From assembly GCF_003334815.1 (NCBI RefSeq), contig NZ_QOWO01000042.1: a DNA stretch of 32,004 nucleotides; one strand, written 5' to 3'. Positions within the stretch are counted from its first letter, which is position 1, and every line of letters starts with the position of its first letter. The position numbers and the translations under genes were made by a program. Source of the DNA: Escherichia coli. GTDB lineage: Bacteria > Pseudomonadota > Gammaproteobacteria > Enterobacterales > Enterobacteriaceae. A model generated the notes under the pieces. It had not been told where the DNA came from. It saw only the letters and a list, made by a program, of their open reading frames with translations, and did not search any database. Positions 10,163 to 15,526 of the stretch are shown piece by piece.

Positions 10163-10283
10163 TGTAGCCTCTTAATCTGCGCCCATTATACGGCGTTCAT
10201 CTTTGCGATGCTGTAAATTTGTTAAATTAGCGTGAACTCTGACGGTATAACGCAAACCGGGGAATATAATTAACTTAGCGTAA

Positions 10284-11596
<1,313 letters not shown>

Positions 11597-11613
11597 CCTG
11601 TACTCCATATGAC

Positions 11614-11635
11614 AACCGCCCTGACGGGCGGTTGA
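11614..11635 (-). promoter_or_regulatory. Perfect 9-bp-stem hairpin between tatC stop and tatD start (possible attenuator or processing site)
   Basis: CAACCGCCC-TGAC-GGGCGGTTG; on the minus strand it is not followed by a U-tract, so it is not a canonical intrinsic terminator. Confidence 0.55.
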
Positions 11636-11637
11636 AT

Positions 11638-12414
11638 TTATTCTTCAGTTTTTTCGCTTTCTGCTTCAGCGTCGTTTTCCTCTTCCCGATTTCGCCCTTT
11701 ACCAACGTAAAAGCGTGAGAAGAAGACACCGATTTCAAACAGACAGTACATCGGGATCGCCAACAGCGTTTGCGAGAAGACATCCGGCGGCGTCAGCAAC
11801 ATCCCGACAACGAATGCACCAACCAGCACATACGGGCGTTTTTTGCGTAAGTCTTCTGGCGAGGTAATCCCCATCCAGCACAGCAGCACAATTGCTACCG
11901 GCACTTCAAAGGAGACACCAAACGCCATAAACAGCGCCATAACGAAGCTTAAATAGCTGGCGATGTCGGTGGATACCTGCACCCCTTCCGGCGCGGTATT
12001 GGCAAGGAAGCCAAATGCCAGCGGAAAGACCACAAAGTAGGCGAATGCCATGCCGATATAAAACAGCAGAGAGCTGGAAACCAGCAGCGGCACCACCAGG
12101 CGACGTTCATGCTTATACAGCGCTGGGGCGATAAATGCCCACACCTGATAGAGAATCACCGGCGCTGACAGAATCAGCGACACCATAAAGGTCAGCTTGA
12201 TCGGCGTAAAGAACGGCGAGGCCACGTCGGTGGCGATCATCGTTGAACCTTGCGGCAACTGCTTGATCAATGGCGCGGATACCAGGTGATAGATGTCATT
12301 GGCGAAATAGACCAGACACAGGAATATCACGATCACCGCGATAATGCAGTTCAGCAGACGCTTACGCAGCTCAATCAGATGCGTGATAAGCGGTTGAGTA
12401 TCTTCTACAGACAT
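11638..12414 (-). CDS. tatC: Twin-arginine translocase subunit TatC, 258 aa
   Basis: [39 protein letters not shown]... recognised as TatC. Confidence 0.95.
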
Positions 12415-12416
12415 GT

Positions 12417-12932
12417 TTACGGTTTATCACTCGACGAAGGGGAAGGTGCAGCGGTTTTCGGTTCAGCGTCCGCAGCAGGTTTTACCACCGGCTCTGGCGT
12501 GGTTTCTGGCTTCTGTTCCGGCGAACTGGCCTGCGTTTGTGCAGCGGCAGGCGTTACGCCCTCATGCGCAGCTTCATTATCTTTCACCACCGGGTTATGG
12601 ATGGTGTGCGCTTCATCGCTCGCCTTTTCAGGATCGTTTGCAACGTAGGAACGCTTCATCGACTCCGCGGCCTGGCGTAGTTCATCCATCGACGCTTTCA
12701 GTTCGGGCGTCAGGTTAGTGAGGCTCGCCTTTTCAACCTTTTTCAGACTGTCCTGAAACTCCTGGAGTTTTAACTCCTGGGTCAGTTCGTTCTGCACCGT
12801 TGTCGCCAGTGAACGCAACGCGCGAATCCAGCCCGCTACCGTTTTTACCGCCACAGGCAGTCGTTGCGGCCCCAGAACGACGAGGCCGATGATGAACACC
12901 AATAGCAGTTCGCTAAAACCGATATCAAACAC
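12417..12932 (-). CDS. tatB: Twin-arginine translocase subunit TatB, 171 aa
   Basis: [41 protein letters not shown]... recognised as TatB; 2-nt gap to tatC. Confidence 0.95.
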
Positions 12933-12935
12933 GGA

Positions 12936-13205
12936 TTACACCTGCTCTTTATCGTGGCGCTTCGCGTCTTCTGTTTTAGCCTGTTCCTGATTCGTATCCG
13001 CCTGCTTATCGGCGATAGTTTTCGCAGTAAAATCAGCATCCTGACTGGTTTTATCCTGCTTTGGTTCATCATCGCTCATTGCTTTTTTAAAGCCTTTGAT
13101 CGACGCACCAAGATCGGAACCGATGGAGCCGAGCTTTTTGGTGCCAAAAAGCAGTACAACGATGACGGCAATAATCAATAACTGCCAAATACTGATACCA
13201 CCCAT
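12936..13205 (-). CDS. tatA: Twin-arginine translocase subunit TatA, 89 aa
   Basis: ORF track 12936..13247; accepted N-terminus [27 protein letters not shown] starts at the ATG at 13203-13205, preceded by a GAGGAA SD. Confidence 0.92.
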
Positions 13206-13283
13206 ACATGTTCCTCTGTGGTAGATGATGATTAAACAAAGCCGCATTATACGTTACACGGCCCGCCTTGAGCGATGAAAAAA

Positions 13284-15526
<2,243 letters not shown>

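Follow-up and report, generated by a model that had tools for sequence, protein, structure and literature searches.

The window, i.e., the whole stretch of 32,004 nucleotides of DNA that was analyzed, belongs to the core genome of E. coli and carries on its minus strand the genes ubiB, tatA, tatB, tatC and tatD in this order. Here, tatC and tatD are co-oriented and 41 nt apart, and a GC-rich hairpin is located between them. On the plus strand rfaH runs toward tatD, with 4 nt of overlap at the tatD stop. The hairpin and its surroundings, a segment of 1651 bp, have matches in 5426 of 5426 complete E. coli genomes, with 100% identity in K-12-like strains, and a window position w is converted to the K-12 MG1655 coordinate as 4023512 + (11638 - w). 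A scan for sigma-70-like promoters in 10600–13500 returned none, and there is thus no sign of a separate tatD promoter. The features of the junction, with the data on which each is based, are the following:

11638–12414, minus strand: tatC coding sequence, 258 aa, with the stop codon TAA at 11640–11638 (ORF list; RefSeq annotation, identical E. coli sequence).
11613–11634, minus strand: probable terminator hairpin (folding energy, invariant core, double changes in the outer pairs, sense-strand stability).
11607–11615, minus strand: interrupted U-tract UUGUCAUAU (conservation of the U positions; T5–T7 in orthologs).
11609, minus strand: 3' end mapped for tatABC RNA, K-12 4023541 (Term-seq, SMRT-Cappable-seq, TRS).
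11606–11608, minus strand: in-frame ATG upstream of the tatD start (MEYRM, formerly used as the start of a 264-aa form), probably not a start (found in 48 of 74 orthologous loci; unused by RefSeq).
11603–11606, minus strand: tatD Shine-Dalgarno (SD) sequence GGAG, 6 nt 5' of the ATG (direct sequence reading; ortholog conservation).
10814–11596, minus strand: tatD coding sequence, 260 aa, with the start codon ATG at 11596–11594 (MFDIGVN; RefSeq and K-12 b4483, 783 nt).

The first-pass annotation of this DNA had called attention to a perfect 9-bp GC-rich stem just past the tatC stop, and the sequence is exactly as claimed. Read along the minus strand, the tatC TAA is followed by ATT, the 5' arm CAACCGCCC (11634–11626), the loop GTCA (11625–11622) and the 3' arm (11621–11613), which is GGGCGGTTG as DNA and GGGCGGUUG as RNA. 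On the 3' side of the stem are TCAT, an ATG (11608–11606), GAG TAC AGG and a second ATG (11596–11594). The stem begins 3 nt past the tatC stop and is composed of 9 bp, 7 of which are G-C pairs, closed by a 4-nt loop; its invariant GC core consists of 11631–11626 paired with 11621–11616. RNA folding, which had been proposed as a check, gives a stem of about -20 kcal/mol (z = -2.9 relative to dinucleotide shuffles). Within 226 nt of sequence context the pairs of the stem have probabilities of 0.86–1.0 and no structure competes with them, and when the 3' arm is blocked in this context the cost is 15.7 kcal/mol and no defined alternative helix is formed. A regulated attenuator of the terminator/antiterminator type is not supported, as no exclusive structure that sequesters the 5' arm and no upstream attenuator or antiterminator were found. 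A search of Rfam (E up to 10) yielded only a chance-level RNAI fragment, at 16.5 bits compared to a gathering score of 47, and no riboswitch or leader family. A dispersed repeat of the REP/BIME type is ruled out, because the element is found in one place per genome as the median of the 5426 E. coli genomes, and in two at most.

Within the 32-kb window only two distinct perfect hairpins with at least 9 bp and a loop of 3–8 nt are found, and GC-rich perfect hairpins appear in the shuffled window at a mean of 0.3 per 32 kb. The hairpin core pattern occurs once in the window and is found in 17% of the shuffles. These window-only statistics are weak, i.e., they are only suggestive and compatible with chance alone.

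Comparison of related genomes is more informative. Eighty tatC loci were taken from Enterobacterales genomes, and from each the stretch between the stop codon of tatC and the start of tatD was extracted. Of the 78 loci in this set that have both genes, 75 carry the CCGCCC/GGGCGG core, which is unchanged in all 72 distinct Enterobacterales sequences (72/72). The three outer stem pairs are variable with compensation; across the 72 sequences 98% of the cells are paired, and 17 cells of these outer pairs carry double changes, a number that was reached by none of 500 shuffles. Over 57 orthologous loci the 22-nt hairpin is 93% identical to that of E. coli, as compared to 42% at the four-fold degenerate sites of tatD codons 1–90, which were compared with E. 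coli in the same way and served as the neutral reference. This difference excludes chance as an explanation for the hairpin. The loop length of the orthologs ranges from 3 to 7 nt. A G·U pair of the stem becomes an A·C mismatch on the antisense strand in 30 of the 72 orthologs, and the tat-sense hairpin is more stable than its antisense counterpart in 66 of the 72 sequences. The compensation, the G·U pairs and the sense-strand stability together show that the object under selection is an RNA hairpin on the tat transcript, and neither a DNA palindrome nor an antisense terminator.

The position of the hairpin is also constrained, relative to tatD. In 74 of 78 core-bearing sequences 18–20 nt separate the GC core from the tatD ATG, and this spacing is kept even where the gap between tatC and the hairpin reaches tens of nucleotides. 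In most Enterobacteriaceae loci the stem is found within a few nucleotides of the tatC stop, where the interval from stop to ATG is 38–47 nt; in Erwiniaceae and Yersinia it is located roughly 20–55 nt past the stop. The parts are packed in the order stem, U-tract of about 9 nt, SD, 6-nt spacer and ATG, such that the U-rich tail directly adjoins the tatD ribosome-binding site.

The earlier reading that the hairpin lacks a U-tract holds only in part. An unbroken run of U is indeed missing, and a scan for consensus terminators on the tat strand called none. However, U is found in 5 of the 9 nt on the 3' side of the GC core in the tail UUGUCAUAU, the first three nt of which double as the base of the 9-bp stem. 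The U positions of this tail are conserved to 95–100%, compared to 67–68% for the intervening C/A, and from this difference it follows that the interrupted tract is itself under constraint. Escherichia, Salmonella, Citrobacter, Enterobacter, Klebsiella and Raoultella share the tail TTGTCATAT, with the same T-tail score as in E. coli, 2.37. In Atlantibacter, Siccibacter, Mangrovibacter, Kosakonia sacchari, Pantoea and several other Enterobacteriaceae the stem is followed by T5–T7, with scores of 4.2–5.0, and these orthologs have the appearance of a textbook intrinsic terminator.

Published maps of E. coli transcripts place RNA 3' ends at this site. In the Term-seq data (Adams et al. 2021, PMC7815308, supplementary file 1), a check suggested by the first-pass annotation, a curated 3' end at 4023541 (+) is classified as 'primary' for tatC; two of the three condition sheets contain it (scores 1493 and 1172). 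This position is equivalent to 11609 in the window, the U just 5' of the upstream AUG, where the RNA terminates in ...GGGCGGUUGUCAU, i.e., 7 nt past the GC core and 4 nt past the 9-bp stem. In SMRT-Cappable-seq (Yan et al. 2018, PMC6131387) a primary, 5'-triphosphate full-length transcript extends from 4021909, the tatA transcription start site (TSS), to 4023541 and covers b3836, b3838 and b3839, i.e., tatA, tatB and tatC. From 127 reads at the TSS, 25 stop at the site, 25 stop within 50 bp downstream and 1 extends beyond (PMC6131387), which yields a read-through of more than 50 bp past the site for 1 of the 51 reads that reach it. The share of SMRT ends within 50 bp past the site (K-12 4023541–4023591, window ~11559–11609) is unusually high when compared to other rows of the same data. 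In the TRS data (PMC10687069) the tatC terminus is found at 4023539, 4023541 and 4023542 in three data sets, with R = 0.89–0.96, where R is 1 minus the local read-through. The ends from the three methods, 4023539–4023542, are located 5–8 nt past the GC core. For the tat strand, the bicyclomycin data set contains no region of Rho termination at the junction or past it (PMC7815308). It had been proposed that the hairpin uncouples tatD from tatABC, and the tatC 3' ends in Term-seq, SMRT-Cappable-seq and TRS, together with the low read-through, bear this out.

The SMRT-Cappable-seq row is of the type 'terminator' and gives as the nearest known transcription termination site (TTS) that of b3839, with its center at 4023526; the known sites were derived from EcoCyc (PMC6131387). 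The center of the hairpin in K-12 is 4023526.5, which coincides with this known site, so the tatC terminator that is already in the catalogue is the hairpin itself; its listing in EcoCyc may rest on prediction. The TERMITe tables contain no E. coli row for tatC, and searches of the tat literature returned no description of the stem-loop.

From the above data it is likely that the hairpin is a Rho-independent terminator within tatABCD that is leaky into tatD, and that TatD is translated from the MFDIGVN ATG. According to this model, transcripts from the tatA promoter would mostly stop at ...GGGCGGUUGUCAU, which would yield a tatABC mRNA, while a minor read-through fraction would bear tatD, and TatD would be made from the SD-led ATG at 11596–11594 (MFDIGVN, 260 aa). 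In canonical intrinsic terminators a U-tract of about 7–9 nt directly adjoins the stem, and the RNA ends within this tract, about 7–9 nt 3' of the stem. We infer that the 3' end is formed by termination of the RNA polymerase itself rather than by trimming, because of where the end is located, the conserved U, the T-tracts of the orthologs and the lack of a Rho signal. Read-through is presumably the main source of tatD mRNA.

The tat site resembles canonical E. coli terminators such as lambda tR2 in its GC-rich stem of 7–9 bp, its tetraloop and its U-rich tail, in the 3' end 7 nt past the GC core and in the full T5–T7 of the orthologs. It differs from these terminators in that the tract UUGUCAUAU is interrupted in E. 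coli and its closest relatives, and in that the element is found between co-oriented genes rather than at the end of a transcription unit, with a tail that abuts the next SD. Terminators within operons are known from dapA-bamC and prs-dauA, where read-through, in the range 11–91%, gives rise to operon variants (PMC6131387). The tat terminator, which is listed in the same data set, is similar to these in that it separates co-oriented genes and that one promoter gives rise to both a shorter and a longer transcript; in contrast to these examples, the read-through at the tat site is low (1/51 reads).

A different origin of the mapped end is possible but on balance unlikely. Here, the polymerase would pass the hairpin and halt within tatD, either by the action of Rho or diffusely, and exonucleases would then trim the RNA back to the stable stem, the role of which, to the same unlikely degree, would be that of a roadblock to 3'-to-5' exonucleases that stabilizes the tatABC mRNA. 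Intercistronic stem-loops such as the REP sequence in malE-malF are known to block 3' exonucleases and to stabilize the upstream mRNA. As in malE-malF, the stable tat hairpin is found 3' of the genes that are needed in larger amounts, and the downstream gene is expressed at a lower level; unlike REP, the tat hairpin is not dispersed and belongs to no Rfam family, and its conserved U positions point to termination. The U-tract is imperfect, and the 25 of 51 SMRT reads that stop within 50 bp downstream, rather than at the site, leave room for a polymerase that often passes the hairpin and for ends that are made later. The Term-seq, SMRT and TRS ends alike fit termination or 3'-to-5' trimming to the hairpin, and the Term-seq authors themselves remark that Rho-terminated transcripts are typically trimmed 3' to 5', such that the mapped ends are near processed ends and not at the termination sites (PMC7815308). 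However, the tat strand lacks a Rho region, the one reported being on the other strand 700 nt away; the 3' end is found 7 nt past the GC core, which is the canonical intrinsic position; and a pure roadblock would need neither the conserved U of the tail nor the full T-tracts of the orthologs. Termination of the polymerase at the hairpin is for these reasons preferred.

Termination at the hairpin may be elaborated further, rather than replaced, by assuming that the ribosome that finishes tatC covers the 5' arm and thereby prevents hairpin formation, a proposal that we consider doubtful. Equally doubtful is its corollary, that the read-through into tatD would be set by the tightness of the coupling between tatC translation and transcription. 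The proposal is motivated by results with tR2, which is almost fully repressed when located a few bp past a stop codon and reaches its maximal efficiency only beyond ~30 bp (Li et al. 2016, NAR, PMC4824070), so that read-through at the tat site could in principle be gated by translation of tatC. Like the repressed tR2 (PMC4824070), the tat stem, 3 nt past the stop, falls within the range of near-full repression, and in most Enterobacteriaceae loci the stem is similarly close to the end of tatC. Unlike the repressed tR2 (PMC4824070), the tat site gives efficient 3'-end formation, as indicated by the in vivo data, i.e., the read-through is low despite the short distance. Furthermore, the proximity to the stop is not conserved, as seen with Erwiniaceae and Yersinia, in contrast to the distance to the tatD ATG. 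Ribosome gating of the tat terminator is speculative. A broader proposal, to which we give as little weight, is that the hairpin, the interrupted U-tract and the SD constitute one conserved module, whose tuned and ribosome-gated leakiness would dose the TatD nuclease relative to TatABC. The imperfect U-tract of the Escherichia-Salmonella-Klebsiella clade would in that case set the low read-through, which is likewise doubtful.

As described earlier for the start of tatD, a GGAG SD is found at 11606–11603, 6 nt upstream of the MFDIGVN ATG. According to the folding prediction it is largely unpaired (P = 0.73). The GG at -10/-9 is conserved to 91–96%, with GGAG or GGGAG in most orthologs, while tatD positions -8 to -1 are unconstrained (4–70% identical) and conservation resumes at the ATG. 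The upstream ATG, 4 codons away at -12, is present in 48 of 74 orthologous loci and missing in 26 of 74; in 16 of 74 no upstream in-frame ATG, GTG or TTG precedes a stop. This ATG was previously described as abutting the hairpin without an SD. It does begin 4 nt past the stem, overlapping the SD of the downstream start, and has no canonical SD, but the stem arm before it is SD-like, with an anti-SD duplex energy of -7.3 kcal/mol, although sequestered. The duplex energies for the two starts, -5.9 vs -7.3 kcal/mol, do not discriminate between them, since the G-rich arm of the stem itself resembles an SD, and they were left unused. Neither the retapamulin preprint nor TRAINSPOTTER gives data on the TatD start, and the N-terminomics tables have no entry for TatD. 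RefSeq and K-12 MG1655 (b4483) list tatD with 783 nt and 260 aa. The preference for the shorter, 260-aa protein that was expressed before is supported by this annotation, by the upstream ATG being found at only 48 of 74 loci, by the 16 of 74 loci without any upstream start and by the unconstrained -8 to -1 region; the MFDIGVN start is the accepted and already known one.

It is very unlikely that the hairpin mainly controls translation of tatD, i.e., access of the 30S subunit, or that TatD has a genuine second isoform in the 264-aa MEYRM form. The nearly constant distance of 18–20 nt from the core to the ATG in almost all genera, in spite of a variable gap between tatC and the hairpin, could be read in this way, but it is explained by simple packing of a U-tract of ~9 nt, the SD and a 6-nt spacer, and the SD is mostly unpaired. 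The upstream ATG is in frame and the SD-like 3' arm is found at a 7-nt spacing; this arm is, however, locked in a stem of -20 kcal/mol, and 26 of 74 loci lack the ATG. The older TatD structure with PDB ID 1XWY was solved in the 264-aa form, whereas the 260-aa form is found in 4PE8 and 4P5U and the current annotation is that of the short form.

The consensus scan calls a terminator only on the plus strand of the window (stem followed by AATTTATTCT), and rfaH converges on tatD with the 4-nt overlap, yet a role of the hairpin on the other or both strands in ending antisense transcription from rfaH is extremely improbable and was rejected on the basis of the strand asymmetry (A·C mismatch in 30/72, sense hairpin more stable in 66/72) and the mapped rfaH ends: these transcripts end inside tatD about 75–125 nt past rfaH, no 3' end is found near the hairpin on that strand in Term-seq or TRS, the tatC codons GAA GAA TAA, read in complement, account for the T-richness of the plus strand, and the tail score on this strand lacks conservation (0.4–3.5). 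The rfaH ends antisense in tatD are found in a bicyclomycin-sensitive (Rho) region at 10817–10943 on the plus strand of the window (K-12 4024207–4024333, minus), with a Rho score of 2.33 at 4024259 (PMC7815308) and a TRS terminus at 4024207 (PMC10687069).

As a terminator, the tatC-tatD hairpin with its mapped 3' ends was catalogued before, and the observation, though correct, is an ordinary one. TatD is not needed for Tat export. The data confirm that in E. coli tatD is largely uncoupled from tatABC at the level of the transcript, which has little wider consequence, and likewise that the correct start for TatD is that of the 260-aa form. What the comparison adds is detail, i.e., an invariant core, U-tracts that are either full or interrupted but constrained, and lineages in which the terminator is deleted and tatC and tatD overlap. 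The site offers a natural series for how the quality of the U-tract and the proximity to the stop codon set the leakiness of a terminator; it does not open a new question.

The hairpin is absent from loci L025 and L028 (3257–3265; Escherichia sp. ESNIH1 and Pseudescherichia vulneris, both of the Pseudescherichia lineage), a natural deletion of the terminator in which the tatD ATG is found within the end of tatC with an 8-nt overlap, GACGATGTTTGA. Gene overlaps of this kind are an arrangement typical of translationally coupled genes. Because these loci lack the hairpin and have overlapping tatC and tatD, the hairpin is dispensable in some lineages. Other loci display rearranged junctions. In L058 (3310–3987) the hairpin is replaced by a different, canonical terminator directly 3' of tatC in a 677-nt spacer; in L074 (3277–3485) copies of the hairpin flank an insert of ~160 nt; in L076 (3268–3482) an insert of ~125 nt with an ERIC-like inverted repeat is located 3' of the hairpin; and in L038 (3277–3451) a structured spacer of ~130 nt is found at the terminator.

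Further transcript ends and hairpins were observed in the window. An internal 3' end at ~12863 on the minus strand (K-12 4022287, +), 69 nt into tatB and behind the hairpin GGCCUCGUCGUUCUGGGGCC, is seen in Term-seq and TRS; in the latter it has R = 0.42–0.67 and is labelled as an alternative tatA terminus (PMC10687069). It would yield tatA-only transcripts, which would fit with TatA being needed in excess. In the divergent ubiD-rfaH spacer very strong Term-seq ends, with scores of 28,609–61,964, are found at 10180–10209 on the plus strand (K-12 4024941 and 4024970, minus). They map to the same strand as rfaH, 120–149 nt ahead of its start, and the authors' score does not class them as Rho-dependent; K-12 has no annotated RNA gene at this place, and the ends could represent a leader attenuation product or a small RNA. 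The other perfect long hairpin of the window, ACCGGGTGGTA/TACCACCCGGT at 19806–19828, is preceded by an A-run and followed by a T-rich stretch. It is found between the convergent ORFs 18915–19796 (plus strand) and 19836–22097 (minus strand) and looks like a bidirectional terminator.
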